A DNA stretch of 64,000 bases from Deltaproteobacteria bacterium (lineage in GTDB: Bacteria; Desulfobacterota; Dissulfuribacteria; Dissulfuribacterales; UBA5754): NCBI GenBank assembly GCA_036574075.1, contig JAINCN010000025.1, positions 3,336-67,335 of the forward strand. The letters run 5' to 3'. Below are positions 10 through 51,682 of the stretch, one piece after another. Position numbers and translations under genes: made by a program. Each line of letters begins with the position of its first letter. The stretch's first letter is position 1. The notes beneath the pieces are model-generated. The model ran no database searches and was not told where the DNA came from. It saw only the letters and a program-made list of their open reading frames with translations.

Positions 10-177
10 CCTGAATCCGTCGTTCGGGGTAGTTGTTCCGTGCGGCAAATAGCCTCCTGTCCATGGGGGCGGATTTGCCGTTTGAGCCCCGCCATGGGCG
101 CCTCCATCCACAAACACCCTGAACGTCGGCTTATTTTGAAAAATTGCCAAGTTAAGTTCATATCTCACGGATTCAGG
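10..177 (+). mobile_element. MITE-like palindromic repeat, copy A
   Basis: Starts CCTGAATCCGT and ends CACGGATTCAGG (terminal inverted repeat). Flanked by direct ATCAT (5-9 and 178-182). Internal IR CGTTCGGGGTAGTTGT (21-36) / ACAAACACCCTGAACG (110-125) encloses a twin-hairpin core. A 34-nt module sits at the right end (131-164). Lies just downstream of the cobQ stop. Confidence 0.8.
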
Positions 178-4434: not shown

Positions 4435-5662
4435 ACTGGAGGGTGCGTCTCAGCCAGTCGAGGGCGGTCTCGGCCGTGGATTCCTGGATCATGGAACGGG
4501 TCCCGGAGAAGCGAAACCTGTGGCTCGCTGTCCAGTCCGGTGTGGCTAGGGCGATGTGGACCGTGCCTACGGGTTTTTCCTCTGTGCCTCCTGACGGTCC
4601 TGCAATCCCGGTGACTGCGATGCCAAAGGGGACATGGGCGATCCGTATGATGCCCTTCACCATGTGAATGGCGGTCTCTTCGCTTACAGCCCCGTGTCTT
4701 TCGAGGATCTCCTCCGGGACGCCGAGGATCTGTATCTTGGAGCAGTTGCTATAGGTGATGACACCGCGGTCGAACCAGGCCGAGCTTCCTGGCACACGAG
4801 TGATCCGCGAAGCGATGAGCCCTCCGGTACAGGATTCGGCCGTGGCGAGAAGCCCACCCCTTTCGGTGAGAAGACGCCCGACGACCGATTCGAGGGTGTC
4901 GTCGTCTGTTGCCACGATGTTTTCTCCAAGTCGGGCCTCGGTCTCTTTACAGGCAGCGAGAAAGGCCGCGTCCACAGCCCTTTTGTCATGGTCACGGGCC
5001 GTGACTGTGACGTGGACCTCTGGGAATACGGGATAGTATCCGATGGTGATCAGATCCCCATGTGCCAGATCCCCGACCATGGCGTTGATCTCGGTCTCAA
5101 GGAGGCCGAAGGTCCGGTAGGTCCGGCGCCGGACGGAAAAATCCGGCGAGACGAGGGCGTGAAGCCTGGGAAGTACGGCATCGACAAGGAGGCGCTCCAT
5201 CTGTTCCGGTATGCCGGGGAGAAAAAAGAAGGAGACGCCGCCGTGCTCTAAGGCGTATCCTGCGGCCGAACCGAAGGGGTCCAGCACCTGCGCGCCCTCG
5301 GGGAGATAGGCGAGTTTTCGAATCATGTCGGCCTGAGTCGCGCCCAATGTCTTTCCGTGGGCCATGATGCGTTTCTGGATTCCCTCGTTGAGGACGAGGG
5401 GAATGCCGAGGGCGACTGAGACCGTCTCGTTCGTGATGTCGTCCGTGGTGGGGCCGAGGCCACCTGTGACGATCACGAAACGGGATCGTGTCATCGCCCG
5501 GGTGACCGCCTCCTGAATGTCTTTCGGATCGTCCCCCACGGTCGTGATGCGGTTGATGGGGTAGCCGGCAGAAAAGAGGCGGCTTGCGGCAAAACTGCTC
5601 GTCGCGTTCATGACCCGTCCCGAGGTCAGCTCGTCACCAATGGCAATGATCTCACCACGCAT
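4397..5662 (-). CDS. cinA: CinA-family competence/damage-inducible protein (nicotinamide-nucleotide amidase)
   Basis: 421 aa. N-terminal MoCF-biosynthesis-like domain (MRGEIIAIGDELTSGR, TGGLGPTTDDIT) plus a C-terminal CinA deamidase domain (ESCTGGLIA). Confidence 0.9.
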   Translation of the reverse strand: MRGEIIAIGDELTSGRVMNATSSFAASRLFSAGYPINRITTVGDDPKDIQEAVTRAMTRSRFVIVTGGLGPTTDDITNETVSVALGIPLVLNEGIQKRIMAHGKTLGATQADMIRKLAYLPEGAQVLDPFGSAAGYALEHGGVSFFFLPGIPEQMERLLVDAVLPRLHALVSPDFSVRRRTYRTFGLLETEINAMVGDLAHGDLITIGYYPVFPEVHVTVTARDHDKRAVDAAFLAACKETEARLGENIVATDDDTLESVVGRLLTERGGLLATAESCTGGLIASRITRVPGSSAWFDRGVITYSNCSKIQILGVPEEILERHGAVSEETAIHMVKGIIRIAHVPFGIAVTGIAGPSGGTEEKPVGTVHIALATPDWTASHRFRFSGTRSMIQESTAETALDWLRRTLQYGTRLPCDRSAR

Positions 5663-9555: not shown

Positions 9556-9729
9556 CCTGAATCCGTGGGCCGACGGCTGGGGTATTTGTTCCGTGCGGCA
9601 AATAGCCCCCGTCCATGGGGGCGGATTTGCCTGCGGCGCCCGTCCATGGGCGCCTCACTCCACAAATATCCCCGCCGTCGGCTTATTCTATGAAATCGAA
9701 AGGTTGAGTGCATATCTCACGGATTCAGG
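9556..9729 (+). mobile_element. MITE-like palindromic repeat, copy B
   Basis: TIR CCTGAATCCGTG / CACGGATTCAGG. Flanking direct ATCGTA (9550-9555 and 9730-9735). IR 9570-9589 / 9662-9681. Hairpins at 9597-9631 and 9635-9654. A diverged ~34-nt module is at the right end. Located between the aminopeptidase stop and the thyX start. Confidence 0.85.
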
Positions 9730-17282: not shown

Positions 17283-17288
17283 CACGCC

Positions 17289-17389
17289 CAGGAACACCTG
17301 TGCGAGAAGGCATGCAGGGCTACTCTGTGCCCTCTGTGTCCTCTGTGGTGAGTCTTTTCAGGAACACCTCGGCGAGAAGGAATGCGGGT
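17289..17389 (+). repeat. 31-nt imperfect direct repeat pair flanking the CACAGAG motif
   Basis: CAGGAACACCTGTGCGAGAAGGCATGCAGGG (17289-17319) and CAGGAACACCTCGGCGAGAAGGAATGCGGGT (17359-17389), 26/31 identical, separated by 39 nt. Confidence 0.6.
17323..17352 (-). repeat. CACAGAG-rich motif, copy 2 (reverse complement)
   Basis: The reverse complement reads CTCACCACAGAGGACACAGAGGGCACAGAG, closely matching 9507-9535. Confidence 0.6.
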
Positions 17390-17702
17390 CCTTTTTTCCT
17401 CTGACGCAGTAGACGGAAAATCCCACCGGAACGATACCCGACTGTCCCGTGCATACGGGATAGGGAGAGCTCTTTCCCCTCTTCCCATCGATCCACATGG
17501 TCGCATATTTGCAAAAGCAATAGCTGTTACCCGGTATTGATGGCTCGAAATGCCGGCAGACAAGGGTGTCCTGATCCATATAACCGGAGATCCGCGCTCT
17601 GGAACGCATGTCAGAAAATGGCAATCCTGCCATAATGTACCCCATGGATTGGGATGTTTTATGTATTATAATGCAATAAACATGCCACTAAAATTGATAT
17701 AA

Positions 17703-17721
17703 TTGTGACAATTTGTGACAA
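17703..17721. promoter_or_regulatory. tandem near-palindromic 9-mers (possible operator)
   Basis: TTGTGACAA-T-TTGTGACAA; each unit is TTGT-N-ACAA. It lies in an AT-rich patch ~320 nt upstream of the PilZ gene. No cognate regulator is identified. Confidence 0.3.
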
Positions 17722-17755
17722 TTATTTCGTATGCAAGGGCCATGTCAAGCCTTTT

Positions 17756-17930
17756 CCTGAATCCGTGAGATATGAACTTAACTTGGCAATTTTTCAAAAT
17801 AAGCCGGCGTTCGGGGTATTTGTTTCGTGCGGCAAATAGCCCCCCGTCCATGGGGGCGGATTTGCCGACGGCGCCCCTCCATGGGCGCCTCACTCCACAA
17901 ATACCCCGAACGCCGGCTCACGGATTCAGG
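17756..17930 (+). mobile_element. MITE-like palindromic repeat, copy C (shell inverted relative to A and B)
   Basis: TIR CCTGAATCCGTG / CACGGATTCAGG. Flanking direct CTTTT (17751-17755 and 17931-17935). Perfect 18-bp IR 17806-17823 / 17897-17914. The 34-nt module is at the left end (17769-17802) in reverse complement. The 50 terminal nt are 50/50 identical to the reverse complement of copy A 128-177. Confidence 0.85.
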
Positions 17931-18040
17931 CTTTTGTTCCTCTTTGATTGAATTTTTTCTTTGGCGAGAAAGATTTTTCCGGAAGTTTATTTCCTTTTCC
18001 CCGGAGCCGATACGAAAGGTGACAAGGAGGATCTGCCCAC

Positions 18041-22733: not shown

Positions 22734-23948
22734 TCATTGACTGATATGAATGAGGTGACCCATCTTGTCCCGCTTGCATCTAAGATAACCGATGTTTTCA
22801 GCGTGCGGGGGGATCTCGATGGGGACCCGTTCTGTCACCTGGAGTCCGTAGCCTTCAAGTGCCACGATCTTCTTGGGGTTGTTGGTCATGAGGCGCATCT
22901 TTCGAACCCCCAGATCCCGCAAGATCTGGGCCCCTACTCCGTAGTCCCTAAGATCCGCCTTGAAACCGAGTTCGATGTTGGCCTCAACCGTGTCCCTGCC
23001 CTGGTCCTGCAGGCAATAGGCGCGGAGTTTGTTGAGGAGGCCGATGCCCCGTCCCTCCTGGCGCATGTAAAGGAGGACCCCGCGTCCGGCACGGGCGATC
23101 AGGTGCATGGCCGTCTGGAGTTGGGGGCCGCAGTCGCAGCGAAGTGATCCGAAGACATCACCAGTGAGGCACTCGGAGTGTACGCGGACGAGTATGGTCT
23201 CGTCCGGGCTGATCTCCCCCTCCCCGAAGATAAGGGCAAGGTGTTCATGCTCGTCGAGTATGCTCGTGTAGGCGATCAGCCGCCATTCTCCACCGAAACG
23301 CGAGGGCAAACGGGTCTCTACCTCCCTCTTCACGAGGCTCTCAGTCCGCAGGCGATAGGCGATGATGTCAGCCACGGTCGCGATCTTGATCCCGTGGCGT
23401 TCAGCAAACTTCTCCAGGTCAGGCATGCGGGACATGGTCCCGTCCTCGTTCATTATTTCGCAGATGACGCCCGCAGGCGTGAGGCCGGCGAGACGGGCCA
23501 GATCCACCGACCCCTCGGTCTGCCCGGCCCGTACCAGCACCCCTCCGTCGCGTGCCCTGAGAGGAAAGACGTGGCCTGGGGTCACTATGGAGTCTGGGCC
23601 GGCATCAGGGGCCACAGCCGCGAGGATCGTGGTTGCCCGGTCATGGGCGGAGATCCCTGTGGTAACGCCATGCGCCGCCTCGATGGATACAGTAAAGGCA
23701 GTCCCGTAACGGGAGGTGTTTCTGGTGGTCATCATGGGAAGCTGGAGCCGGTCCACCTGCTCAGATGTCAGGGCAAGGCAAATGAGTCCACGGCCGTGTT
23801 GGGCCATGAAGTTGATCGCCTCGGGCGTGACCTTTTCGGCCGCGATAACGAGATCCCCCTCGTTTTCGCGGTCTTCATCGTCCACGAGGATGATCATTTT
23901 CCCTTGTCTGAGGTCTTCCAGAATATCTTCGATGGGTGATATGGGCAT
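22734..23948 (-). CDS. ribBA: bifunctional 3,4-dihydroxy-2-butanone-4-phosphate synthase / GTP cyclohydrolase II
   Basis: 404 aa. [11 protein letters not shown] (DHBP synthase) and [18 protein letters not shown] (GTP cyclohydrolase II). Confidence 0.95.
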
Positions 23949-32947: not shown

Positions 32948-34117
32948 TCAGTCCGCCTTTTTTCGCAGGAAGGTCGGTCTGTCCAGTTGATCCCAGTCCA
33001 CCTCGTCAAGCGGGGACTGGATCGTGTGAGGCCTTCGGATCTGGCGTTTTGTCTCTGATGGAAACGCAGGGCCAGAGTACCCGGTCTCCTGCTCTGGCCG
33101 GGCCTTTTTCAGGATGTTCAGGTTTCTGACGACCTGTTCATCCGCAGGCTGGCGGAGTTCCGCCCCGATCCCCGTGGCAATGACAGTGACCCGGAGTTCG
33201 TCACCGGCTGCGTCGTCAAAGACCGTCCCCCAGATGATGTTGGCGTCCTCATGGGCCTCGTTGTGGATGAGCATGGAGGCCTCGTCCACCTCGTCCATGG
33301 TGAGATTGGCGCTGCTCGCGGTGATGTTCATGAGGATCCCGCGGGCACCGCTGATGGAGACGTCTTCGAGGAGGGGGTTTGCTATGGCCATCTGGACCGC
33401 CTCTACAGCACGGCGTTCACCCCGGGCAACACCCGTACCCATCAGGGCCATTCCCATTTCTCCCATGACGGTACGGACGTCGGCGAAGTCCACGTTCACG
33501 TATCCGTGGACCACGATGAGGTCCGATATCCCCCTCACCGCATAGTAGAGGACCTCGTCGGCCTTTTTGAACATCTCGTAAAAAGGGGTGTTGGCCTGTG
33601 CAAGTTTGCGGAGACGGTCGTTTGGGATGGTGATGATGGTGTCTACGACCTTTCTGAGACGCTCGATCCCATCCTCCGCCTGTTTCATGCGCCTCTTGCC
33701 CTCGAAGGCGAAGGGTTTGGTGACCACGGCCACCGTAAGGGCGCCGAGTTCCTTGCTGATCTCCGCAATGACCGGGGCGCCTCCCGTACCTGTTCCTCCG
33801 CCCATCCCAGCGGTGATGAAGACCATGTCGCTGCCCTCGATCGCGGAACGGATCTCTTCCGCGCTCTCTTCAGCGGCCTCCCGTCCGACCTCGGGATTGG
33901 CACCGGCCCCGAGGCCTTTGGTCAGGCTTTTGCCGAGCTGGATCTTGACTGCGGCACGGGACATCTCGAGGACCTGGGCGTCCGTGTTTGCGGCGATGAA
34001 CTCCACCCCCCTGAGCTCGGCGGAGATCATATTATTGACCGCGTTTCCTCCCCCGCCGCCGACACCTATTACCTTGATGCGCGCCGTATGTTCTGTATCC
34101 GCGAATTCAAACGACAT
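32948..34117 (-). CDS. ftsZ: cell division protein FtsZ
   Basis: [13 protein letters not shown] and [13 protein letters not shown] tubulin signature. 389 aa. Confidence 0.97.
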
Positions 34118-34154
34118 ATCTCATTCCCTCCGTCTTTGCCTCTGCACAAGGGGA

Positions 34155-35378
34155 TCAGATGCCGAACCAGGATCGCATGCGGCTGCTGACCCGGTGGAAG
34201 ATGTTCCCGTCCCGAATCCTGAACTGTTTTGACGGCATGTGCTCGGCCCCGTAAAGGACTAGGCCGACTGCAGTTGCGTACATGGGACTGTGGACCACGT
34301 CCACGAGCCCGGTGATCCCTTTGGGATAGCCGATCCGCGTGGGCAGTTGAAAGATCTGGTCTGCGATCTCTGCGATCCCGGGAAGAAGCGATGACCCCCC
34401 GGTGATGACTATGCCTGAGGTGAGATCAGATTTGAGCCCAGTCTTCTGGATCTCCGTATCCACGATGGTGAGGATCTCCTCCACCCGGGGTTCCAGGATC
34501 TCAGCGAGTATGTGGCGGGAGAGCATGCGGGGTTTTCGCCCGCCCACGCTCGGCACCTCGATTACCTCGTCCCGCTGGACAAGGGAGCTGAGACAGGTGC
34601 CGTAGAGAAATTTTATCTTTTCCGCCTCGGCCATGGGGGTCTTGAGGCCGACGGCGATGTCGTTCGTGAGGTTGTTGCCCCCGAGTCCCAGGACGGACGT
34701 GTGTTTGATGGAGCCGTCGATGAATATGCTCAGATCCGTGGTCCCCCCGCCGAAGTCCACGAGGGCGACTCCTAGATCCTTCTCCTCCTGGGTCAGGACG
34801 GCCTCGCCAGAGGCAAGGGGCTGCAGGACGATGTCGATGACGTCAAGTCCCGCCCGGTTCGCGCACTTGATGAGGTTCTGGGCGGCTGTGACCGCACCGG
34901 TCACGATGTGGACCTTGGCCTCAAGCCGGACACCCACCATGCCGACCGGGTCGTGGATGCCGTGCTGGTCGTCGATGATGTATTCCTGGGGAAGGATATG
35001 GATGACTTCCCTGTCTAAGGGGATGGCCACGGCCCGGGCCGCCTCGATCACCCGGTCTACGTCGTCCTGTGTCACTTCCTGGCCCTTGATGGCAATGACG
35101 CCGTGGCTGTTGAAACCCTTGATGTGACTACCAGCGATCCCCACATAGACCTTTCCGATCTCGAAGCCCGCCATGAGTTCGGCCTCTTCCACGGCCTTCT
35201 TGATGGAGGAGACCGTGCTTTCCACGTTTACGACCACGCCCTTGCGCAGACCGTTGGAAGGGTGTGTGCCGACTCCGATGATGTCCATGCCGGCCTCGCC
35301 GGCTTCTCCGACGATGGCGCAGATCTTGGTCGTGCCGATATCGAGGCCGACGACGATGTCAGGGGATCTTGCGGTCAT
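34155..35378 (-). CDS. ftsA: cell division protein FtsA
   Basis: Actin-like ATPase (VGLDIGTTKICAIVGE, VDFGGGTTD). ftsQ-ftsA-ftsZ order. Confidence 0.95.
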   Translation of the reverse strand: MTARSPDIVVGLDIGTTKICAIVGEAGEAGMDIIGVGTHPSNGLRKGVVVNVESTVSSIKKAVEEAELMAGFEIGKVYVGIAGSHIKGFNSHGVIAIKGQEVTQDDVDRVIEAARAVAIPLDREVIHILPQEYIIDDQHGIHDPVGMVGVRLEAKVHIVTGAVTAAQNLIKCANRAGLDVIDIVLQPLASGEAVLTQEEKDLGVALVDFGGGTTDLSIFIDGSIKHTSVLGLGGNNLTNDIAVGLKTPMAEAEKIKFLYGTCLSSLVQRDEVIEVPSVGGRKPRMLSRHILAEILEPRVEEILTIVDTEIQKTGLKSDLTSGIVITGGSSLLPGIAEIADQIFQLPTRIGYPKGITGLVDVVHSPMYATAVGLVLYGAEHMPSKQFRIRDGNIFHRVSSRMRSWFGI

Positions 35379-35391
35379 GTGTTCGGTGTCC

Positions 35392-36216
35392 TCAGTCCTT
35401 CATGCGGACAAGTGCACGGCTGCCGCCCATGTCCAGATCGATGGAATCCACCCGGGAGTAGTTCCCAGAGACGTAAAGTTGATAGAGGATCCTTTCTGCC
35501 CTCTTGAGTTGTTCCTTCAGGTCGGTTTTTGGGGAAAAAAGGAGCGCGATATCCACTCCGCCTGCATATACCACCAGCCCTCCGGATTCTTCAAGGCTGA
35601 TAGATCTAATGGAGGAGAGCCCGCTGGTCTTGGACCCGGATGCGGCAAGGGAGATGAAATCGAGGGCGCTGCGCCATCTCTCCGATAGGCAACCGTTTTG
35701 GATCTCATCCGGGGAGACGTTCGTGAGCCGAGGCAGATCATCCGGGGCAGGGTCGGGCGACGTGAGGATGCGGCCCGTCCGATCCACCAGTTTATCCGTC
35801 CCAATGACGGCCACGGGTTTGCGCTCCTTGACCGAGATCTCGACACGGTCAGGGAGGATCCTCTTGACCGTGCATGTCTCGATCCACGGGTGCCCTTCGA
35901 CCCCTTTTGCAACAGAGGAGAGGTCGATCGAAAGGGTGCTCATGCCGGCAGAGAGGCCGGATGCAGCAAGGATCTCGTCCTGGGGGACGCGAAAGTTCCC
36001 TGAGATGTGGATGTTTGTGAGGCGGAACACGGTGAGATTCTCCACCCAGTGCCCCAGCATGGGGGCCATATAAGCCCCCGCTGCCACGAAGAGACAGACG
36101 AGGATTGCAAGGGCCACCCGTCGAATGATCAGAAAAACACGGAGCCGGCGCCTTCCGGATCCCGGTCTTCGTGGAGATGCCTGGCGGCTCCCGTAGATCA
36201 CGAAACGGCCCTCCAC
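35392..36216 (-). CDS. ftsQ: cell division protein FtsQ
   Basis: N-terminal TM helix, then a POTRA-like segment (FRLTNIHISGNFRVPQDEIL). Position upstream of ftsA. Confidence 0.8.
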   Translation of the reverse strand: MEGRFVIYGSRQASPRRPGSGRRRLRVFLIIRRVALAILVCLFVAAGAYMAPMLGHWVENLTVFRLTNIHISGNFRVPQDEILAASGLSAGMSTLSIDLSSVAKGVEGHPWIETCTVKRILPDRVEISVKERKPVAVIGTDKLVDRTGRILTSPDPAPDDLPRLTNVSPDEIQNGCLSERWRSALDFISLAASGSKTSGLSSIRSISLEESGGLVVYAGGVDIALLFSPKTDLKEQLKRAERILYQLYVSGNYSRVDSIDLDMGGSRALVRMKD

Positions 36217-37100
36217 ACCTCGACCTCCGGTTCGAGCACGATGCCGTGCTCATCGTGGACCTTTCGGTGGACTAGTTGCATGAGGTTCATTACGTCCGAA
36301 AAGGTGGCACCGTCCTGATTGACGATGAAGTTGCCGTGTCGCCTGGAGACCTCCGCCCCTCCAACACGCATGCCCTTGAGGCCAGTCTGATCTATGAACC
36401 AACCTGCCGGTCCTTCTGGTGGATTCTTGAAGATGCAGCCGGCGCTGGGCCTGCCGATGGGCTGGGTGGATACCCGCCTTTTCATGACCTTTTTGATGGT
36501 GGCGAGGATCTCCTTCCTGTTTCCTGGGGCAAGAAGTATTCGAACCCCAGTGACCACGGTGTCCGCAGGGAGCCCTGTTTTTCTGTATCCGTACTTCAAG
36601 TCCTTAGCAGGGACCCATGCGCTTCCTTCAGAACTGGTCAGCAGGACGGATTCCGTGATGTCGCAGATGGACCTGTCACGGGTCCCTGCGTTCACGGCAA
36701 CCGCACCGCCCATGCTCGCTGGGATCCCTGCAAAGGGTTCAAGTCCTGTGAGCCCTGCCCGGACAGACCACGCAATCAGGAAGGGGAGGCTGCATCCCGC
36801 TCCCACAGTCACACGGAACCGCGATCCATCGAGCCTTTCCCATTCAAGGGCTGTGAGCCTCTCGAGCGAGAGGAGGGGGGGATGATGCCCCTCCTCCACA
36901 AGGAGATTGCTCCCCCGTCCGAGGACACGATATGGTAAGCCCGCTTTTGCAAAATGGCGCAGTGTCTGTTCGGTCGCCTTGATGGTCGCGGGACGATATA
37001 CGTCTGCCCTACCCCCGATGCGGAAGGTGGTGAGGCGAAAGAGTCCGCAATCCCGCTGGATGGCGAGGTCTTGAATAGGAGGGGGGTCAGGGATGGACAC
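36198..37100 (-). CDS. murB: UDP-N-acetylenolpyruvoylglucosamine reductase
   Basis: TTFRIGGRADVY and LGRGSNLLV FAD-binding motifs. 300 aa. Confidence 0.93.
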   Translation of the reverse strand: MSIPDPPPIQDLAIQRDCGLFRLTTFRIGGRADVYRPATIKATEQTLRHFAKAGLPYRVLGRGSNLLVEEGHHPPLLSLERLTALEWERLDGSRFRVTVGAGCSLPFLIAWSVRAGLTGLEPFAGIPASMGGAVAVNAGTRDRSICDITESVLLTSSEGSAWVPAKDLKYGYRKTGLPADTVVTGVRILLAPGNRKEILATIKKVMKRRVSTQPIGRPSAGCIFKNPPEGPAGWFIDQTGLKGMRVGGAEVSRRHGNFIVNQDGATFSDVMNLMQLVHRKVHDEHGIVLEPEVEVWRAVS

Positions 37101-38490
37101 AGGTCGCTCTCTCTCGCTGATTTAGAAGGGAGATCAATTTAGGACCGAGGGCACCGATGGACCCGGCTCCCAAGGTAAAGACCACGTCCCCTGGCGCAAG
37201 CGAGACGGATGCCTCGTAAAGGAGGTCCTGGCAGGTCGGGGCGTAGTGGACCGGTCTGTTTCCCACCTCCCGGATACGTCTGGCAAGCCGTTCCCCGCTC
37301 ACGCCCACGATGGGCCTTTCACTTGCGGGATAGATCTCTGTGATCCAGAGTTCGTCCGCATCGGCAAAGGCCGTGGCGAATTCTTCCATAAGGGCGCTCG
37401 TCCTCGTGTACCGGTGGGGTTCAAAGAGGGCGATGATCCTCCTGTCCGGCCAGCAGCCGCGCGCGGCCGCAAGGGTCGCCTTGATCTCCGTGGGGTGATG
37501 GGCATAGTCATCCACGACCAGGATCCCCTGTGGCTCTCCCAGTACCTCAAACCTTCTTCCCACGCCTTCGTAGTCCGCGAGCCCTTTCTGTATGGAGGAA
37601 AAGGGGATGTCGAGCTCGAGACCGACGGCCAAGGCCGCAAGGGAGTTCCGGACGTGATGGATCCCAGGGACCCTGAGGCGGATCTCCCCGATGGGCCTAT
37701 CCCGAAGGTATGCCGTGTAGGAGGACCGCATCCCGTCAAAGGCGATTCCCTGGGCAGTCAAATCCAGGCAGGGGCGTGTTCCGTAGGTCATCACCCTGCC
37801 CGGGAGCCGGGGAAGGACGTCGGAAGCGAGGATCGGATCGTCGCCGCAGAGGATGGAGATCCCGTAGAAGGGTATCCTTTCGAGAAACTCCACAAACGCC
37901 TTTTGGATATCCTGAAGGTCTCTGTAGTGGTCCAGGTGCTCCCGGTCGATGTTGGTGACCACGGCGATGCACGGGCACAGGCGCAGAAAACTTCCGTCGC
38001 TTTCATCCGCCTCGGCCACGAGGAAATCGCCGTTTCCCCAGCAGGCATTGGTCCCGAAGGCCTTGACCATGCCTCCAATGATCATCGTTGGGTCAAGTCC
38101 GCCTGCACGCAGTACTGAAGCCGTCATGGAGGTGGTGCTCGTCTTTCCGTGGGCACCGGCCACTGCTATCCCATATTTCTTGAGCCGCATGAGCCCGGCG
38201 AGCATCTCTGCGCGGGGGATCACCGGAATACCCGCCTCAATGGCCGCCTGGATCTCAGGATTGTCCTCCTTTACAGCAGAGGATACGACGACCACGTCCG
38301 CGCCTTTCACATGCCCTGCCTCGTGTCCCCGCCATATTCGGCCACCGAGGCGTTCGAGTCGGCGCGTTGCGTCGTTTTCCCTGAGATCCGAGCCGCTCAC
38401 CGTGTACCCAAGTTCGAGCAGGACGTGGGCGATCCCGCTCATTCCAATGCCACCGATACCAACAAAATGGATATGTTGTTTTTTATACAT
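37087..38490 (-). CDS. murC: UDP-N-acetylmuramate--L-alanine ligase
   Basis: Start at MYKKQHIHFVGIGGIGMSGIA (ATG at 38490); the ORF is open to 38712 but that part overlaps murG. Mur ligase P-loop AGAHGKTSTT. Confidence 0.93.
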   Translation of the reverse strand: MYKKQHIHFVGIGGIGMSGIAHVLLELGYTVSGSDLRENDATRRLERLGGRIWRGHEAGHVKGADVVVVSSAVKEDNPEIQAAIEAGIPVIPRAEMLAGLMRLKKYGIAVAGAHGKTSTTSMTASVLRAGGLDPTMIIGGMVKAFGTNACWGNGDFLVAEADESDGSFLRLCPCIAVVTNIDREHLDHYRDLQDIQKAFVEFLERIPFYGISILCGDDPILASDVLPRLPGRVMTYGTRPCLDLTAQGIAFDGMRSSYTAYLRDRPIGEIRLRVPGIHHVRNSLAALAVGLELDIPFSSIQKGLADYEGVGRRFEVLGEPQGILVVDDYAHHPTEIKATLAAARGCWPDRRIIALFEPHRYTRTSALMEEFATAFADADELWITEIYPASERPIVGVSGERLARRIREVGNRPVHYAPTCQDLLYEASVSLAPGDVVFTLGAGSIGALGPKLISLLNQRERATCVHP

Positions 38491-39664
38491 GGTCCTTGGC
38501 TTCTTTGCCTTTGATGTCGTTATTGTGTACCCCTTTTCCCCATTCCTTTGAAGCAGGCGAGCCGCGCAGGGCCTCCCCAAGGGAAAGGAGGTGGCGGGCC
38601 ATCTCGTCTGCCGACTCCGGCCTGCCGAACCGGCTGGCCCGCCTTCCCATGGCCATGAGCCGCTCCCTGTCCTCGGCAAGTCCCTGGATCTCGCCAGCCA
38701 GCCTGACCGCACCTATTCCGTCTTCCTGAAAGAAGAGGGCCGCACCGGCAGCCGCGAGCCCTTCGGCATTTGCGTCCTGATGGCCCCCTGCCGCGTGGGG
38801 ATAGGGGATGAGAATGGCGGGTTTGCCAAGGGCAGTGATCTCGGAGATGGTGCCTGCTCCGGCCCGGCATATGACGAGATCGGCCCAGGCGTAATAAGTA
38901 TGGATATCCGTGATGAAGGTAAAGACCCGCGCCGGGACCTGAGAGGTCCTGTACATGCCTTCGATCTCCTCCTGGTTGACAGCACCCGTCTGGTGGACCA
39001 CCTCAAGGGAGACCCCTGACCTCCAGAGGTTTTCTATGGCGGATGCAGCGAGTCTGTTCAGGGACGCCGCCCCTTGGCTTCCTCCCAGGACGAGGATTTT
39101 GAAGGGCCTGCCTCCCGCATCCTGTGAGATGGCCTCTGTTTTGGCAGCAAGGATGGAGGCGCGCACAGGGTTTCCCGTGTGGATCACCTTCTTTCCAGAA
39201 AAGTGGGATGCCGTCTCGGGAAAACTCACGAAAACCAGGTCGGCTAAGCGTGCAGCCATGCGATTGGCAAGGCCCGGCATGGCGTTCTGTTCGTGGATGG
39301 CAGTGGGGATTCCGAGCAGGCGTGCCGCAAGCACCACAGGGCCGGAGACATACCCTCCCACGCCGAGAGCCACGTGGGGAGAAAAGGACCTGAGCCACAG
39401 CGCTGCCCGTGCCGTGTGGATCGGAAGACCTGCAAGGGCGCGTAGCATGGCAAGGGGATTTGTGCCTGCGATGGGGCGGACCGGAAGTATCCGGTGCTCC
39501 CAACCGCGTCCTTTGAGGGCGTCCGTCTCCACAGGCCTTCCGGTGCCTATCCAGAGGACCGTGAGCCTTCGGGACCGGGCAAGGGCATCGGCCACAGCGA
39601 TCGCTGGAAAGACGTGCCCTCCGGTCCCTCCCCCGGCTATGACGAGTCTAAAGGGCGCCTTCAT
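38483..39664 (-). CDS. murG: undecaprenyldiphospho-muramoylpentapeptide beta-N-acetylglucosaminyltransferase
   Basis: IAGGGTGGHVFPAIAVA and EQNAMPG motifs. 393 aa. Its start overlaps the murD stop by 4 nt. Confidence 0.93.
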   Translation of the reverse strand: MKAPFRLVIAGGGTGGHVFPAIAVADALARSRRLTVLWIGTGRPVETDALKGRGWEHRILPVRPIAGTNPLAMLRALAGLPIHTARAALWLRSFSPHVALGVGGYVSGPVVLAARLLGIPTAIHEQNAMPGLANRMAARLADLVFVSFPETASHFSGKKVIHTGNPVRASILAAKTEAISQDAGGRPFKILVLGGSQGAASLNRLAASAIENLWRSGVSLEVVHQTGAVNQEEIEGMYRTSQVPARVFTFITDIHTYYAWADLVICRAGAGTISEITALGKPAILIPYPHAAGGHQDANAEGLAAAGAALFFQEDGIGAVRLAGEIQGLAEDRERLMAMGRRASRFGRPESADEMARHLLSLGEALRGSPASKEWGKGVHNNDIKGKEAKDHV

Positions 39665-41085
39665 GCGTCGACCGCCTCACCGGCCCGGACGGCTTCCATG
39701 AAAACGCATCCCCTTTCCTCGAAGTTCGAGAAGAGGTCGAAGCTTGCGCAGGCCGGGGCAAGCAGGATCACGTCTCCGGGCCGTGCATAGCCCTCTGCCA
39801 TCCGGACGGCGGCGTGCATGACGGCCCGACCGGATGTCTCTCCCTGGATACGGGATATGGGCACATGTCCGTCAAAGACCCGGTGGATGGACTCTGCCTC
39901 CTCCCCGAAGGCGACCACGGCCCGAAGGCGCCCCAGTCCCTTTTCGAGGAGCGGGGTATAGTCCTCCCCTTTGCCCCGTCCGCCCGCAATGAGCACGATG
40001 GGCCGGTCGATGGCGTCCAGGGCACGAAGAACGGATGCCACGTTCGTGGCCTTTGAGTCGTTGTAATAGCTGATCCCGTCCCTTGTGAGGACGAATTCGA
40101 GACGGTGTGCCGGGGCATGGAAGGCACCGATGGTCTGCTGGATGTCTTTGGGGCGTGCGCCTGCAAGACGGGCAAGCAAGATGGCTGCTGCGAGATTTTC
40201 CCTGTTGTGGCGGCCAGGAAGGGACCATCTTTCAAGGGGGTATTCCTCGGTTGCGCCGTCCGGCCACCGGACAACGATCCGCTCCTGCCAGATGGCGGCG
40301 CCCGCATCCAGGCCCGCGCCGTGGCCAAAGGTGAGGATGCAGCCCGGCGACTTCAGGATCCAGGGGGCGAGCTGGGGATCGTCTCGGTTCAGGATCCGGC
40401 ATCCATCCTGCCCGGCGAGATCGAGGATCCTGGCCTTGCTCCGCCCATAGGAGTCCAGATCGGGGTAGCGGTCCAGATGGTCCGGGGCGAGATTGAGCCA
40501 GGCTACCCCGCGCACGGGCGGGATCAATGCCCCGTCCGGAATCGCATCCAGCTGGAAGCTGCTGACCTCGAGGACTGCGACCGTCTTTTCGGTGTGCCCG
40601 TCAAGAAAGCAGGAAAGCGGGGTGCCGATGTTTCCGGCTACCCGGTGGTCTATACCCGCGGCCTCGAGCATGGCGCCCGTGAGTGCCGTGGTAGTGGTCT
40701 TGCCGTTCGTCCCTGTGAGGGCGAGGATCGGGCCCTTCCAGTGGGAGATGGCGAGATCCAGTTCTCCGCGTACCGGTATCCCCCGGAGCCGCGCCTCACT
40801 GATTGCGGGTATCGTTAAGGGGATGCCTGGGCTTACGACCACGAGGTCGGATCGAATGGCGGTCTCCACGCGGTTTGCCCCAGCCTCGATCCCGATCCCG
40901 TTCTCCTTGCAGAACGAGATGAACGTGAAGGGCCATGCATCGAGGGGATGCAGATCGCTCACCGTGACATGGGCGCCCTGAGAGTGGAGCCAGCGGGCTG
41001 CGGCCTGTCCAGACCTCCCGGCCCCGAGCACCAGGACCTTCTTGCCGTCAGGTGTATGGACTTCGGGTTTTGGCAGCATGGTCAT
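39661..41085 (-). CDS. murD: UDP-N-acetylmuramoylalanine--D-glutamate ligase
   Basis: [17 protein letters not shown] Rossmann fold and the [14 protein letters not shown]-loop. 474 aa. Confidence 0.93.
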
Positions 41086-42164
41086 CTGAGTTTGAGGGTG
41101 CTGATGGCTATGAGCCCGAGGATCACCGAAATGATCCAGAATCTGACGATCACCTTGGATTCCTGCCAGCCTCCGAGTTCGAAATGGTGGTGCAGAGGGG
41201 CCATGCGGAAGATCCTTCTCCCATTGGTCGCCTTGAAGTATCCGACCTGCATGATGACGGAGAGTGCCTCAAGGACGAATACCCCGCCCACAATGAGAAG
41301 CAGGATCTCCTGTTTGGCGAGGATCGCCACTGTCCCGAGGACGCCTCCCATGGCAAGGGACCCCACGTCCCCCATGAAGATGCTCGCTGGATGGGCGTTG
41401 TACCAGAGAAAGCCGAGTCCGGCGCCCACCATGGCCCCGCAGAGGATCGTGAGTTCTCCTGCTCCTGAGACCGATGGGATCTGGAGATACGAGGCAAGGG
41501 CCGCGTGTCCGGCCAGATAACTGAAGAGGGCATAGACCGCGGAGGAGACGATAAAGGGGCCTGTGGCAAGGCCGTCCAGCCCGTCTGTGAGATTGACGGC
41601 GTTGGATGCCCCGAGGATCACGAAAAGGGCGAAGACCGTATAGAGGGCAGGGCCCAGATCGGGCCGAAACCCCTTGAAGAATGGGACAGAGAGATGGGTG
41701 TCCCAGGTCCCATGGTGGGCGAGGATGCCCGCTGCCGCAAGCACGATGACCGCCTGACAGGTGAGCTTCCATCTGCCTGCAAGCCCCTTGGAATTTTTCC
41801 GGCGGATCTTTTTCATGTCGTCCACGAGGCCGATGGCGGCAAAACCCAGAAGTATGAAAAGGGAGATCCAGACAAAGAGGTTCGTGAGATCAGACCAGAG
41901 GAGACAGGCACAGGAGATGGCCCCGACGATGAGGATGCCACCCATGCTCGGGGTCCCGGCCTTGATCATGTGCGAGGCCGGGCCGTCGTCCCGGATCACC
42001 TGCCCCATCTGGAACTCCTGCATCTTTCTGATGAACCATGGCCCAAAGGAGAGGACGATGAGGAGGGCGGTGAGGGTCGCGTATACGGTCCGGAAGGTGA
42101 TGTAGCGAAAGACATTGAAAACAGGGATGGATTCATGGAGGGGATAGAGGAGGTGATAGAGCAT
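41082..42164 (-). CDS. mraY: phospho-N-acetylmuramoyl-pentapeptide transferase
   Basis: 360 aa, polytopic. [22 protein letters not shown] and HHHFEL motifs. Confidence 0.95.
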
Positions 42165-42166
42165 GC

Positions 42167-45124
42167 TTACCCCTCCGTTTCTGTGTCATACGCCGCTTCC
42201 AGGGCTTGAATGGCCTTTTCGAGCCGCATTCCTCTGGATCCCTTCACGAGTACGCATGCGTTTTCCGGGATGTGTGCCCGGGCCTCTTGTTGGATCCAGG
42301 AAACGAGATCGCAAGTCTCCGGAAAGACAAGGATGCGGGAGAGGGGAAGCCCTGCCTCCCTGGCCCCACGGCTTACGTCATCCCCATGCGTCCCGCATGC
42401 GATGAGGAGGGAGACGCCATGGCGGGCGGCGGATCTCCCGAGTTCCTGATGGAAAAGGTGGGCGGAATCACCCAGCTCCAGCATGTCACCGAGGATGGCG
42501 ACCCTCGGCCTTGACCCGCTCCAGATGGACAGGGTCTCAAGTGCCGCCTCCATGGAGGCGGGATTGGCGTTGTAGCTGTCATCCATGAGGGTGATCCCGG
42601 ACGGGAGATCCTTCGGGGTAATCCGGCCCGGGAGGGGTTTTGCCAGGGAAAGTCCCTGGATGACCTCGTAATGGGTGAGGCCGACTGCAAGACCCACGGC
42701 TGCAGCCGCAAGGGCGTTTTGAACAGCGGCCCTGCCCATGAGTGGGAAGAGAAAGGAGGTCTCCCGGCCCCGCATGGATATGGTTATCACGGCGCCTTCG
42801 GGATGTGGGGACCAGCCGGGACATGTTACAACGGTCTCGATTTCCCCTTTGGCATGGTCGGCTCCTGAGAGCGTATAGCCGATCTTTCGACAGGAAAGCC
42901 TGTTTGCCCTTTCTACGATGAGTGGTTCGTCCAGATTGACTACAGCGATCCCGTTTTTGCCGTCAAGGGCCTGTAAAAGCGCAGACTTTTCCCGGGCTAC
43001 TGCCTCAACGCTTCCCAGGCCCTCGAGATGCGCGGGTTTCACTGTGGTGACGATACCCACGTCAGGTCCGGCGATGGAGGCGAGCCTGGCGATCTCTCCT
43101 GGCTGATTCATGCCCATCTCGAGGACCATCCAGTCGAGGGGAGGGCGCAACCTGAGGATGCTGAGAGGGAGCCCGATGAGGTTGTTGAGGTTACCGGGGG
43201 TCTTTCCGACCCGCCATCTCTGGGCGAGGACGAGGGCGACGAGTTCCTTCGTCCCGGTCTTGCCGCAGCTTCCGGTTATCCCTACCACCCTGACCCCGAG
43301 GGTCTTTCTGAAAAGCGAGGCAATGGCGCCGAGGGCAAGGAGGGTATCCGGCGCGACAAGGACCGCCGCCTCCGGGGAGGAGGATCGCACCTCGTCCACG
43401 ATTTCGGGACGTCCGTCCTGGATGAGCACGCCAACTGCCCCGGTCCTTACCGCATGGCAGGCAAAGGCGTTGCCGTCGAAGCGGTTTCCGGAAAGGGCGA
43501 CAAAGAGCTCGCCTTTCTGAAGGGAGCGGGTGTCGGTGGTGATGCCGACAGGGACTGCGTCCGGATTTCCAGACAGTATCCGTGCCCCTGCGGCCTGAGC
43601 GATCTGGCGGATGGAGAGGGGAAAGGCATGCGGATTCGGGATCGAGACGGCTTCGCATTCGACAATCGCCTTGGTGGTCTCAGTTAGGTCGTTGAATGGG
43701 AGCCTTGAGGCGCCAATGATTTGATAGGTCTCGTGCCCCTTTCCTGCGATGAGTATGCAATCCCCGGGCCGGGCCTCCTGAACTGCATGGCGGATGGCCT
43801 CCCTCCGATCCGGGATCACCCGTACCCTTTTGCCGTCTTCCTGAGGAAAAGGGGGCTGTGGCAGATGCAATGTGGCTGTGGACTCCCAAAGGCCCTCGCA
43901 CATGTCGTCAAGGATGGCGATGGGGTCCTCGCTCCGGGGGTTGTCCATGGTAAAGACGGCAAGATCCGAGTGATCCCGGGCTATCCTCCCCATGAGCGGC
44001 CTTTTGCCCCGGTCCCTGTCCCCGCCGCACCCAACTACGGTGATGATCCTTTCGGGGCCAAGGGTCCGGAGGGTTTGAAGGACGCGTTCAAGGGCGTCCG
44101 GGGTGTGGGCGTAGTCCACGAAGGCAATGGGCCTGCCGGCGAAAACGACCGGATCCAGCCGGCCAGGCACGCGGCGGACACGGGAGATCCCGGCTGCTAT
44201 GGCGCCGGCGTCCACGCCAAGAGGGAGGACTGCGGCTATGGCCGCAAGGATGTTCATGAGGTTGTGGGCCCCGATGAGGGAGGAGTCAACCTCGATCCTT
44301 CCCGCCGGGGTCTCGACCGTGGCCCGTATGCCTGTGAGGTCCAGGGACAGGTCGGTGGGCCTTACCATGGCCTTGCGACCCATTCCGTAGGTCATGGCAT
44401 GGCCGGAGATGAGATCGCAGAGCCTCTTTCCATATGGGCAGTCGATGTTGATGGCCGAGGCCTTGGGGGCAAGCTCGAGAAAGAGGCGACATTTGGCTGC
44501 AAAATACCCATCCATGGATCCATGGTAGTCCAGGTGGTCATGGGTGAGGTTCGTGAAGACAGCTACGGAAAATTGGCACCCGGCAACCCGCATCTGGTCG
44601 AGGGCGTGGGAGGAGACCTCCATGACCGCCGATCGGGCACCGCGGTCCCGCAGGGAGGCGAGATAGGCCTGCAGACTGACCGCGTCCGGCGTGGTGAGTT
44701 CGGAGGGGGTGACCTCATCTCCAAAGCATCGGTGGATGGTCCCAATAAGGCCGGGCAAGAGTCCGGCCTCATTGAGGATCTCCTTGATGAGAAATGATGT
44801 GGTGGTCTTTCCGTTGGTACCTGTGATGCCGATTAGATGCATGTGCCGGCTTGGATGGCCGTGGAACTCGGCCGCGTATTCGCCGACTGCGCGCCTGACA
44901 TCATCGACTCCGATGACCTCGACCTTGCAGGAGAGATCTCCACGAAGCCGCTCTGCGTCCTCCCGTGGGACGAGGACAGCGACAGCACCTTTTTTGACGG
45001 CCTCGCCTACATAGGTCCTACCGTCCAGCTTCGTGCCCGGAATGGCTGCAAAAAGATATCCCGGACGGACGGCGCGGGAATCGGTTGTAAGCCCGCAAAT
45101 TGGTTTCACCCTGTTTCCCCCCAT
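42167..45124 (-). CDS. murE-murF: fused MurE-MurF (meso-DAP-adding ligase plus D-Ala-D-Ala-adding ligase in one 985-aa ORF)
   Basis: N-terminal half: [16 protein letters not shown]-loop [11 protein letters not shown], and the C-terminal GKGHETYQ of MurE. After a short linker (junction ...[13 protein letters not shown]..., about 43620-43670) comes a complete MurF: [17 protein letters not shown] and P-loop [12 protein letters not shown]. There is no stop codon between the halves. Confidence 0.88.
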
Positions 45125-45136
45125 CCAAAGGGCCTA

Positions 45137-45200
45137 ACTCCCCGGAATATTTGTAACGTGCGGCAAATCGACCCCATCCATGGGCCGAACAATATACCCT
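45137..45200 (+). repeat. decayed fragment of the MITE-like core, copy F
   Basis: CCCCGGAATATTTGTAACGTGCGGCAAATCGACCCCATCCATGGG matches the left IR plus the first hairpin arm and loop of the family. The right half is missing or diverged. It lies between the ftsI-like stop and the murE-murF start. Confidence 0.55.
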
Positions 45201-45231
45201 TTTCCATCCGACTGAGAAACATGGACCAGCC

Positions 45232-46776
45232 TCAAGGCAGGGAGGCCGCGATCTGGATCCGCGCCTCGGCAAGGCCCACACCCCGGTACGCGGTCTGGTG
45301 AAGCCCGGCCAGGATACTGGAAATGCGGGAGACGTCCCCAATGGTATCCATGACAAGGATGTAAGCGATTTCCGGGGCGTGCCGGGGGGCGAATCCCAGG
45401 GCGAGGAATTGGGCGGCCGTGTTGGTATCAGGCACCCTTCCGGAGACGTAAACAATGGACGGCCCATGCTCGCGGGAAAGTTCCTGCTGGAGGAATATGG
45501 AGGCCTTCTCTGTAATGGGTGGTCCTGCCTTCCCGAGGTCCGAGGCCAATCTCCAGAAGGACGGCGAGGTTTCGTGCTTGGTGAGGGTGATTCGGGGGGT
45601 AACGACCTTACCCCGGTTGATGAGTGCGCAAAAGGCCCGGAGGATCTGTATGGGTGTGGCGCTGAAGCCTTCGGTGAAGGGCTCGCTCCAGGTCCCTTCA
45701 AGGTGGGCGGGTATGCGTCCGGCAGCCTCTCCCTCAAGATCGATTCCAGTTGTCTGCCCGAAGCCCATTCTGGAAAGGGATCCCAGTATGCCGGGCAGGA
45801 TACGGATCTGCTCGATCTCTTCAGCACTCCATGGTGAGAAGATCTCCCTTCCTTGGGGAGAGACCGTCCACTGCCAGGCGTCTTGAGGTGGCCGAGGATA
45901 AGCGGATGGATCAGACTCCGGAGCGCACCCAAGGGATTCGGAGCGGGCTATGAGAAGGGGGATGGGAAACGGATCCACCTCCCCTTGAATGGCGAAATTT
46001 TTCTTGTGGAGGGTCTCTGACACCTGGGGCGCAGAGGGGGAGTCGGAGGGCTTGGCATTGGCCATAGCGAGGATCTCTCCTCTCTCCACATCCATGACAA
46101 TGAAGCATCCTCTGGCTGCCTGCGTGGTATTCAGTGCAGATTGGAGACCCTTTTCCGCTTCCATCTGGAGCCCGCGTTCCAGGCTGAGGATGACGTTGCC
46201 AGGGCCGGTGCGGGAAGGCATGACGCCGCTTTCTCCGAGGAGGTCATCATAAATGTATTCCACCCCGCTTATGCCGTGTCCATCCTCTCCGACGTCTCCT
46301 ATGATCTCGCCTGCCAGGTCTCTATAGGGAGAGATGCGCCTGTAGCTGGTAAGGATTCTTGCCCCGTCCAACCCGAGAGATTCAAGTCTTTCCCGCGCCC
46401 CTTCTCCCGGGTTGACCGCAATGGTGACAGGACCGCGTCCTGACCTGGCAGACCGGAGGAGGGCGTCGGGATCGAGGCCGAGGATGGTGCCCATATCCTT
46501 GGCCCATTCCTTACCCGGGGGCATTTGGGTGGGGTGGATGACAAGGACGTGTTCAGGAATGCTCCCGGCGAGCATTACCCCTGATCGATCGAGGATCGCC
46601 CCCCGGTAAGGCGACAGGGGAATGGAGGTCTGCCGGCAGGTCCCGGAAACGAGACACGTCCCCCCGACCCACATGCAGATGCCCATGGTGACAAAGACGG
46701 GTATGGGACGGATCCTCCGCCGAATGTTGACAGAGAAGAATCGGGCAAGATGCTTAGGGAATGCCGGGGCGTGCAT
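45232..46776 (-). CDS. ftsI: FtsI/PBP3-like class B penicillin-binding protein homologue, catalytic motifs absent
   Basis: N-terminal TM helix. Dimerisation-domain motif YRGAILDRSGVMLA, MDVERGEILAMAN, GFGQTTGIDLEGE and ATPIQILRAFCALINRG all align to PBP3. No S-x-x-K occurs anywhere in the 514 aa, and no SxN or K(T/S)G motif occurs in the C-terminal domain. Confidence 0.8.
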   Translation of the reverse strand: MHAPAFPKHLARFFSVNIRRRIRPIPVFVTMGICMWVGGTCLVSGTCRQTSIPLSPYRGAILDRSGVMLAGSIPEHVLVIHPTQMPPGKEWAKDMGTILGLDPDALLRSARSGRGPVTIAVNPGEGARERLESLGLDGARILTSYRRISPYRDLAGEIIGDVGEDGHGISGVEYIYDDLLGESGVMPSRTGPGNVILSLERGLQMEAEKGLQSALNTTQAARGCFIVMDVERGEILAMANAKPSDSPSAPQVSETLHKKNFAIQGEVDPFPIPLLIARSESLGCAPESDPSAYPRPPQDAWQWTVSPQGREIFSPWSAEEIEQIRILPGILGSLSRMGFGQTTGIDLEGEAAGRIPAHLEGTWSEPFTEGFSATPIQILRAFCALINRGKVVTPRITLTKHETSPSFWRLASDLGKAGPPITEKASIFLQQELSREHGPSIVYVSGRVPDTNTAAQFLALGFAPRHAPEIAYILVMDTIGDVSRISSILAGLHQTAYRGVGLAEARIQIAASLP

Positions 46777-46787
46777 GGAAAGCGGCG

Positions 46788-47153
46788 CTACTGGAGGAGC
46801 CTGACGATTTCCTCATCCTTGGGGGGACGGAGGCCGAGGGCCCTGCCGACCTTCGCCAATTCCTGGGATCTGGTGAGCCGGGCCTCTTCGGCGACAAGGG
46901 CGTCGTGTTCTGCTGCGAGGCGCTTGGACTCGAGCTCCAGGAGTTCGACCCGCTCCGAGACCCTTTTCACAGAGACGTGGGACCAGACGGTCACCGAGAT
47001 GACGAGGATTGCCAAGAGGGTGAGAAGGACGGAGCGCGCGGACAAGACGGCTGATGTCTGCCGTTCCGTACCGTAGATATTGCTCCCCTTGAAGGGATGA
47101 GGTCTTCTTGCCCTATGGACGGTAGGACGTATGGTGGCGGTTCGGATGCTCAT
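46788..47153 (-). CDS. ftsL: cell division protein FtsL
   Basis: 121 aa. A single TM helix followed by a coiled coil (ELLELESKRLAAEHDALVAEEARL). Lies between rsmH and ftsI. Confidence 0.75.
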   Translation of the reverse strand: MSIRTATIRPTVHRARRPHPFKGSNIYGTERQTSAVLSARSVLLTLLAILVISVTVWSHVSVKRVSERVELLELESKRLAAEHDALVAEEARLTRSQELAKVGRALGLRPPKDEEIVRLLQ

Positions 47154-48509: not shown

Positions 48510-48605
48510 ACGATACCCCCTTCGCCCACTTTATCCCACTTGCTGACACTATATTGAAGCGCCGTCCCCTGTGTCAAGGCCTTTCAGCAGGCCTTGCAGG
48601 GATCA

Positions 48606-51670: not shown

Positions 51671-51682
51671 CCTGAATCCGTG
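51671..51682 (+). repeat. isolated MITE terminal-repeat string
   Basis: CCTGAATCCGTG is identical to the left TIR of copies B and C, but it is followed by unrelated sequence. No right TIR is found downstream. Confidence 0.4.

Follow-up and report, generated by a model that had tools for sequence, protein, structure and literature searches.

Apparent recurrent inversion of a TwoAYGGAY-like hairpin cassette within a miniature transposable element family of an unclassified deltaproteobacterium

TwoAYGGAY (RF01731) is a widespread structured motif of unknown function whose described range comprises human gut metagenomes, Gammaproteobacteria, and Clostridiales (Bacillota) (Weinberg et al. 2010, PMC2864571). 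A September 2026 preprint notes extreme copy-number variation and flanking repeats, suggests a mobile-element-like expansion, gives the proposal that TwoAYGGAY loops bind Csr/Rsm proteins, and leaves the mechanism of spread open (bioRxiv 10.64898/2026.09.22.753630). Here we analyse a 64-kb window (the whole stretch of DNA studied, in whose coordinates positions are given) of contig JAINCN010000025.1 (assembly GCA_036574075.1) from an unclassified deltaproteobacterium. It carries at 17756-17930 an element, hereafter copy C, that is a member of a family of ~175-bp non-autonomous transposable elements (MITEs, for miniature inverted-repeat transposable elements) built as a nested palindrome. An outer shell with terminal inverted repeats (TIRs) and target-site duplications (TSDs) surrounds an inner, TwoAYGGAY-like cassette, and this cassette is found in both orientations relative to the shell. 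We propose, with a probability of roughly 0.55, that it has inverted recurrently and spontaneously across its own 21-bp arms, with additional gene conversion between copies.

The cassette resembles TwoAYGGAY in having two adjacent hairpins with AYGGAY loops on a common basal stem, and in being multi-copy and intergenic. It differs in its host, and in the presence of TIRs, TSDs, and one empty site, none of which has been described for the RF01731 family. A mechanistic parallel is offered by template switching between the arms of inverted repeats (Ripley model), which leads to arm homogenisation and spacer inversion and is both recurrent and reversible (PMC8604942). Shared with that model are short, near-perfect arms that remain unchanged and complementary while the spacer is inverted repeatedly; however, documented spacers are only a few bases long, whereas the spacer here comprises 72 nt that fold into two hairpins, and events were there read from orthologous sites on a phylogeny but are here read from paralogous copies. 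Among bacterial MITEs, Correia elements are similarly small (about 100-200 bp), non-coding, and intergenic, with TIRs, TSDs, subtypes that differ at their ends, and variants with internal deletions (PMC10969869). In situ inversion of a Correia element is attributed to Elbeyioglu 2017 where that work is cited in PMC10969869. What inverts in the present family is not the whole element but a cassette inside the TIRs that has 21-bp arms of its own, and the sequences are unrelated.

Two further systems invite comparison. Invertons (fimS/FimBE, Hin, and the Bacteroides promoters) likewise hold an asymmetric segment between inverted repeats and occur in two orientations, whereas here there is no nearby recombinase within the window, no internal promoter in the copies scanned (B and C), the repeats vary, and dozens of dispersed copies reside in a transposon shell. 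The inverted terminal repeats of parvoviruses (adeno-associated virus, AAV) and the telomeres of poxviruses also form a stem with two small hairpins (a T- or Y-shaped fold) whose asymmetric tip exists in two configurations. Their flip-flop results from hairpin-primed replication of linear genome ends and yields a 1:1 mixture. The element described here, on the other hand, is chromosomal and internal, with no replication role indicated.

Copy C is flanked by the 5-bp TSD CTTTT (17751-17755 and 17931-17935), which was read directly and is present as a single CTTTT in an empty-site allele. Its left terminal repeat TIR1, CCTGAATCCGTGA (17756-17768, plus strand), forms a perfect inverted repeat with the right TIR1 (17918-17930, minus strand); the terminal repeat CCTGAATCCGTGAG is perfect at both ends of C and common to all copies with this type of shell. 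Inside the left TIR1 lies a 34-nt one-sided module (17769-17802, minus strand), placed on the left arm in C, whereas A and B have it on the right. The cassette follows, with a left arm (17803-17823, plus strand) that is the perfect complement of the right arm (17897-17917, plus strand); these 21-bp inner inverted repeats make up the basal stem and enclose an asymmetric centre (17824-17896) whose hairpins are assigned to the minus strand by predicted folds and alignment. Hairpin 1 is predicted at 17870-17889 with the loop AUGGAG, and an extended hairpin 2 at 17831-17866 with the loop AUGGAC, both on the minus strand. A covariance model of the cassette scores copy C at 136 bits on the minus strand vs 52 bits on the plus strand. 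Over all copies the model gives 111-145 bits on one strand vs 18-52 bits on the other, a difference of about 85-95 bits in each strand call, and the far-apart scores make cassette orientation unambiguous.

The comparison that reveals the flip is that of C with copy A (10-177, minus strand; TSD ATCAT at 5-9 and 178-182), which carries its module on the right arm (131-164). Copy A has a 7-nt deletion in its left arm and an imperfect stem, and its cassette centre is a different variant block from that of C. A preliminary description of this DNA had reported that the module-bearing end is reversed between the two copies while the core reads in the same direction, and these observations are reproduced here. 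The module occurs at exactly two sites in the window, 131-164 (plus strand) and 17769-17802 (minus strand), and in none of 100 shuffles. The segment 17756-17805 matches the reverse complement of 128-177 at 50/50 positions, and the identity continues for just one base more on each side. Also reproduced was the perfect 18-bp inner repeat of C (17806-17823 / 17897-17914), which extends to 21 bp as 17803-17823 / 17897-17917. Since stem plus core are identical at 96/110 positions when A and C are compared directly and at 69/110 when one is reversed, the core is co-directional in the two copies and it is the module-bearing arm that is swapped. An identical shell and a divergent core, as had been claimed, are seen as 0 differences in 51 nt (TIR plus module) vs 14 in 110 nt (stem plus core). 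The core plus stem thus forms a unit that is present in both orientations against a conserved shell, with boundaries within the inner inverted repeats.

Further claims of the preliminary description fared differently. Its suggestion that shell and core have different histories agrees with the mosaic nature of the cassette, in which 36/210 pairs of informative sites fail the four-gamete test. The geometry had been read either as that of an invertible DNA segment or as the outcome of recombination or template switching across inverted repeats; the latter fits best, while a dedicated inverton is disfavoured, as no serine or tyrosine recombinase or transposase was found among the ~55 genes of the window by Pfam annotation. 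The inverted repeats said to bound the core are real, but they constitute the basal stem of a TwoAYGGAY-like three-way-junction fold inside a MITE, and the MITE itself had gone unrecognised.

The pattern is not confined to A and C: a related genome shows it too, as does an outer shell of a second type. In the window, a search with the core probe GTGCGGCAAATAGCC matched six copies (A-F), which share one strand. A 22-mer of the core, in one scan of species-representative genomes, identified 26 loci, mostly from the metagenome-assembled genome (MAG) 'Deltaproteobacteria bacterium UBA5754' and in a few cases from short contigs of a sulfidic-cave study. Window and loci together hold 35 copies or remnants in 237 kb examined; 29 are complete, and it is important to note that this is a small sample drawn mostly from a different species-level MAG (UBA5754). 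The covariance model, built from the copies, identified no additional ones in the window and loci. Metagenome scans gave 0 matches for the A/C-type module and 0 for the core 22-mer, and two viral scans gave 0 matches. Several short sulfidic-cave contigs with the element (L008, L009, L012, L018, and L023) are assigned to MAGs of Lentisphaera, Anaerolinea, Brevinema, and Syntrophus; as contigs ending in repeats, they are probably mis-binned.

Copies are 140-190 bp long, non-coding, and located between genes, and their whole-element minimum-free-energy folds have z-scores of -9 to -12. Shell 1, to which A and C belong, has 13-14-bp TIRs (CCTGAATCCGTGA/G), and an exact 5-6-bp TSD flanks 10/20 copies, with four more matching at 4/5 positions. 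In shell 2, which copy D shares with six copies of UBA5754, the terminal repeat is longer (CAGGGATCCGTCAAAGTCA, the 20-bp TIR2), and the TSD, seen in 5/7 copies, measures 9-10 bp. The two sub-terminal arms of this shell are unequal: arm X includes the full shell-1 terminal repeat and arm Y a degenerate one, the difference consisting of a block of substitutions and small indels with no insertion. The module, which is predicted to form an asymmetric one-sided bulge, is missing from the TIR1-bearing X arm of shell 2; homologous modules, optional in the family and confined to one arm, are present in 21 copies. The 114-nt cassette is common to both shells. Its stem of 21 bp closes off an asymmetric centre of 72 nt, for which the fold shows two hairpins, one of 7 bp and one of 7+6 bp, each with an AUGGAC loop on one strand.

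With every cassette set to the same direction, shell 1 comprises 17 copies with a right-arm module and four with a left-arm module (C, L003, L007, and L022), plus one copy that lacks the module (L015, 2600-2740); none carries it on both arms. Shell-2 copies are Y-left/X-right in five cases and X-left/Y-right in two (D and L021), and no X-X or Y-Y copy was encountered; under free arm assortment, 7/7 copies with one X and one Y arm would have P ~0.008. We prefer cassette inversion as the explanation of these counts because it requires one event per switch, whereas moving an arm feature requires two together with intermediates that were not seen. Moreover, the shell-2 asymmetry is not an insertion, so that insertion of the module on either arm cannot be the general explanation.

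What flips is the whole cassette, with the shell asymmetries lying just outside the stem. A G.T marker in the upper stem keeps to one side of the cassette whether the copy is X-Y (L021) or Y-X (L006, L013, and L019), which places the exchange in the lower stem. Switches have also occurred repeatedly. The modules fall into two subtypes, type I in 13 right and one left copy and type II in four right and three left copies, and for C, L007, and L022 the module closest in sequence belongs in each case to a module-right copy, with 0, 3, and 4 differences, respectively. Flipped copies are therefore polyphyletic, distributed over three module lineages, and imply at least three independent switches. 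Every type II copy has a T at alignment column 9, whereas type I copies never do; this linkage of module subtype with a lower-stem variant indicates that whole elements form lineages within which the cassette flips.

Mechanistically, template switching between the arms at replication, or short-homology recombination within a hairpin or cruciform, is the most likely route of cassette inversion, and such a flip would need no dedicated invertase. The same process would keep the arms of the inverted repeat complementary, and gene conversion among the many copies would reshuffle cassette variants. Inversion might take place in situ, in the donor copy, or during transposition. If gene conversion shuffles variants in this way, it would account for copies A and C being identical in TIR and module while showing 14/110 differences in the cassette. 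Indeed, most A-C differences are concentrated in two blocks (GGATGGA/GGAGTGA and CTCAAA/CGCCGT) that are polymorphisms shared with other copies; A has its two variant blocks in common with the unrelated copies L006, L013, and L018, and 6/8 combinations of three variant blocks are present.

Variation in the basal stem is of particular interest in this respect. Compensatory double changes among copies affect 8/17 of its pairs, and the covariation score of 0.157 exceeds both the shuffled value (0.090; 0/500 shuffles reach the observed score) and that of slid partners (0.025-0.036). The two hairpins are almost invariant and without co-variation. G.U and A.C mismatches number 22 vs 12, no significant excess for either strand as RNA, and the cassette is sense in six and antisense in six unambiguous gene contexts (these context counts are rough, having been obtained with a home-made gene caller). 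Given the lack of a G.U bias and the even sense/antisense split, stem co-variation may derive from DNA-level homogenisation of the palindrome arms rather than from selection on an RNA.

Several points weigh against recurrent inversion as the full account. Copy C is very recent and still polymorphic, and its shell is that of A, yet their stem and core have diverged. Simple inversion in place with later drift would not lead one to expect this, and exchange between copies must be invoked as well. Module type II has more than its share of flipped copies (3/7 vs 1/14 in type I), and some flips may have been inherited rather than arisen independently. No locus was seen in both orientations: the Logan contigs reached through flanking proteins break at the repeats, and neither these look-ups nor the two metagenome scans, both of them empty, recovered orthologous loci. 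Finally, the molecular mechanism of the flip is a suggestion drawn from its geometry and from the literature.

The same observations raise the main alternative, which we nevertheless regard as unlikely, that cassettes are replaced by gene conversion from another copy, with palindromic stems pairing in either register and flips arising as a by-product. The perfect shell identity of A and C, the concentration of their cassette differences in two shared polymorphic blocks, the four-gamete failures, and the very recent insertion of C all speak for replacement. However, wholesale replacement with the stems included would erode the tight linkage of module subtype with the lower stem, which persists, and each conversion tract would have to cover the whole 72-nt centre and to end in both arms. 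Reciprocal exchange would, in addition, yield double-module and module-free copies as well as X-X and Y-Y ones, all of which are absent or rare. Reciprocal crossover between the arms of different copies was likewise considered as the main route and rejected, as the copies it predicts were not seen.

Alternatively, the cassette could have remained fixed while a shell feature moved, the module and the X/Y difference having been inserted independently, or copied to the other arm and then lost from the first. The preliminary description had allowed for a module that is an independent insertion able to occupy either arm, both arms, or neither; copies were found with it on the left arm, on the right arm, or without it (L015), but none had it twice. 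That the module is lacking in L015 and in the X arm of shell 2 means that it was gained or lost at least once, and palindromic arms would offer an insertion site on both sides. Nevertheless, double-module copies (0/22) and X-X or Y-Y copies (0/7, the shell-2 counts alone giving the P value above) are missing, and a shell-2 flip whose asymmetry is a substitution and indel block argues against the module as an independent insertion. Two events per switch would be needed instead of one, and, with the modules of flipped copies being nearest to unflipped ones in three lineages, hops would have to be repeated. We consider this quite improbable.

It is very unlikely, although the same cassette in two shells with different TIRs and TSD lengths (5 bp and 9-10 bp) might suggest it, that the 114-nt cassette is itself mobile and targets the palindromic centre of MITE shells in either orientation. 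The flipping unit does coincide exactly with stem plus core, and mobility has been suspected of TwoAYGGAY elements elsewhere (bioRxiv 10.64898/2026.09.22.753630). Yet all 35/35 copies detected with the core probe have a shell or a remnant of one, and none is naked. A clean empty shell was not found among them, the sole core-less shell (in L015) retaining 8 nt of the right stem, as after a deletion. No duplication flanks the cassette inside its shell, and shell 2 holds TIR1 remnants and thus looks like a shell-1 element captured once.

A programmed inverton, in which a site-specific recombinase flips the cassette at each locus and thereby switches AUGGAC hairpins in neighbouring transcripts, is highly improbable. 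The family does present an asymmetric 72-nt centre between perfect 21-bp inverted repeats in both orientations, and the two strands would yield very different RNAs. Against this, the window genes include neither a serine nor a tyrosine recombinase; all of them are housekeeping genes (the dcw cluster, riboflavin genes, tRNA synthetases, and others). A simple consensus scan detected no promoter-like (sigma-70) or terminator-like site inside copies B and C. The inverted repeats vary between copies with compensation, unlike a conserved recombinase site, and the cassette is as often sense as antisense. An assembly artefact, in which a de Bruijn assembler read the spacer between perfect inverted repeats the wrong way (arms of at least k-1 bases leave spacer orientation undetermined by k-mers, and repeats do break Logan contigs), is most improbable given that the arms are only 21 bp and below the usual final k, that independent Logan contigs recover either junction between arm and cassette in D and a further Logan contig joins the cobQ flank to TIR and module at the module-bearing end of A, and that flipped copies bear their own substitutions and are found in two independent assemblies (the window and MAG UBA5754).

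Mobility of the element, as distinct from inversion within it, is documented at the locus of C itself. Exact-protein look-ups located the genes flanking C on two Logan contigs of run SRR15502205, in which contigs break at repeats; among the flanking genes queried, five proteins had no record and the rest were found only in this run. One contig ends exactly at ...GTCAAGCCTTTT, and the second has the same 30 nt at its start and proceeds directly into GTTCCTCTTTG... Contig SRR15502205_709 matches the window except that element C and one CTTTT are missing. In this empty-site allele, represented by L028 (1-140) and L027 (3760-3848), window 17727-17755 is joined to 17936 onward, the sole other difference being T8 vs T6 in a downstream T-run. 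The exact empty site with a single CTTTT identifies element C as a presence/absence polymorphism in that population, and the same sample accordingly holds a near-identical strain without insertion C. Most likely, copy C is a recent insertion, although the empty site could also stem from precise excision.

Left of element C, a 470-nt AT-rich non-coding stretch (17283-17755) contains two copies of the direct repeat TGTGACAATT at 17707-17726, a strong sigma-70-like site on the minus strand from 17748 to 17721 (11/12), and a 95-aa open reading frame on the minus strand (17358-17645) that has no Pfam match.

With respect to TwoAYGGAY, the cassette is best called similar, and membership in RF01731 is borderline. 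Copy B (9556-9729, minus strand; module on the right arm at 9683-9716, TSD ATCGTA) is the only copy above the gathering score, with 44.3 bits vs 43 at 9565-9686 on the minus strand, and its two hairpins and basal stem align to the model. Copy D reaches 39.3 bits on the same strand, below the gathering score. An Rfam search returned no RF01731 match for copy C, for the consensus-like copy L011, or for 18 UBA5754 loci; C is accordingly not counted as a member, having no match to the curated model. The loop AUGGAC occurs twice in the consensus and in B, C combining AUGGAG with AUGGAC and A combining AUGGCG with AUGGAC.

A role of the cassette as RNA is unproven here, considering that there is neither an orientation preference with respect to genes nor a G.U excess. 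By the same rough gene calls, the shell is co-oriented with transcription in 10/12 unambiguous contexts, the module-bearing arm lying upstream of the cassette, while the cassette is sense in only 6/12. This contrast provides a hint for a more speculative reading. Here the 114-nt cassette would be a portable, self-contained invertible module, captured by different MITE shells and acting as an inversion-switchable post-transcriptional regulator, such that neighbouring transcripts would carry either two AUGGAC (CsrA/Rsm-type GGA) hairpins or their inert complement. We regard this as a long shot. All four module-left copies are located beside genes on the GTGCGG strand. The cassettes of the window all share a strand, and the window has a positive GC skew throughout; a link to the replication strand was dropped, as the UBA5754 loci show no relation of orientation to local skew.

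The remaining copies of the window differ in preservation. Copy D (48598-48779, minus strand) has the same cassette in shell 2, with TIR2 CAGGGATCAGTCAAAGTC, unequal X and Y arms, and the 10-bp TSD GCAGGCCTTG (48588-48597 and 48780-48789), and lies immediately upstream of mraZ. Copy E (about 63866-63960, minus strand) keeps the left TIR1, the stem, and the first cassette half, its right half being degenerate, and lies upstream of an OmpA-family gene, 21 nt from its start. Copy F (about 45120-45200, minus strand) is a strongly degenerate remnant between ftsI and a murE/F gene, and a solo terminal repeat is present at 51671-51690. The dcw cluster is complete from mraZ to ftsZ (32948-48509, minus strand) and includes a 985-aa protein (42167-45124) with two sets of Mur-ligase domains, an apparent murE-murF fusion. 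Elsewhere in the window, a sub-threshold Rfam match to V_AS9 (Vibrio antisense RNA, RF02820; 40.5 bits vs 50) at 23748-23848 on the plus strand probably reflects conserved coding sequence, since the match falls within the coding region of ribBA, in antisense.

Derivatives of the element were also identified among the loci. One-hairpin cassettes (L003 2487-2571, L004 7684-7766, L014 7003-7084, and L020 4353-4435) arise by deletion between two CCCATGGACGGG direct repeats, a deletion that is seemingly recurrent, being found with both module subtypes. Core-less or truncated derivatives are located in L015 (about 5020-5090, minus strand), L001 (about 1742-1800), and L012 (201-247), the first of which keeps the left TIR, the 8 nt of right stem mentioned above, the module, and the right TIR. 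A would-be parent insertion sequence (IS) would have the ends CCTGAATCCGTG with a 5-bp duplication, or CAGGGATCCGTCAAAGTC with a 9-10-bp duplication; no full-length or autonomous IS with these terminal repeats is present in the window or the 26 loci. A transposase-like C-terminal fragment (...IEALNGIFQTAKAKARGYRNVE; L024 3100-3190) abuts the left TIR of an element (L024b) but was set aside, as it lacks the terminal repeats of that element. By the ISfinder tables, IS1380 may be the family of shell 1 if judged by CC ends and duplications of 4-5 bp, and ISAs1 that of shell 2 if judged by CAGGG ends and duplications of 8-10 bp.

For TwoAYGGAY, whose means of spread the 2026 preprint did not settle, this lineage supplies direct transposon hallmarks of a TwoAYGGAY-like cassette: TIRs, TSDs of fixed length, a clean empty site in one population, and two shells. 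The strong co-variation of the basal stem can stem from homogenisation of its arms at the DNA level and, taken alone, is no evidence of RNA function. The cassette flips provide a clear bacterial example of inversion of a long spacer between short inverted repeats, and they call for caution in that paralogous copies of a repeat can mimic an inverton. The question of TwoAYGGAY mobility thereby gains a concrete, testable case.

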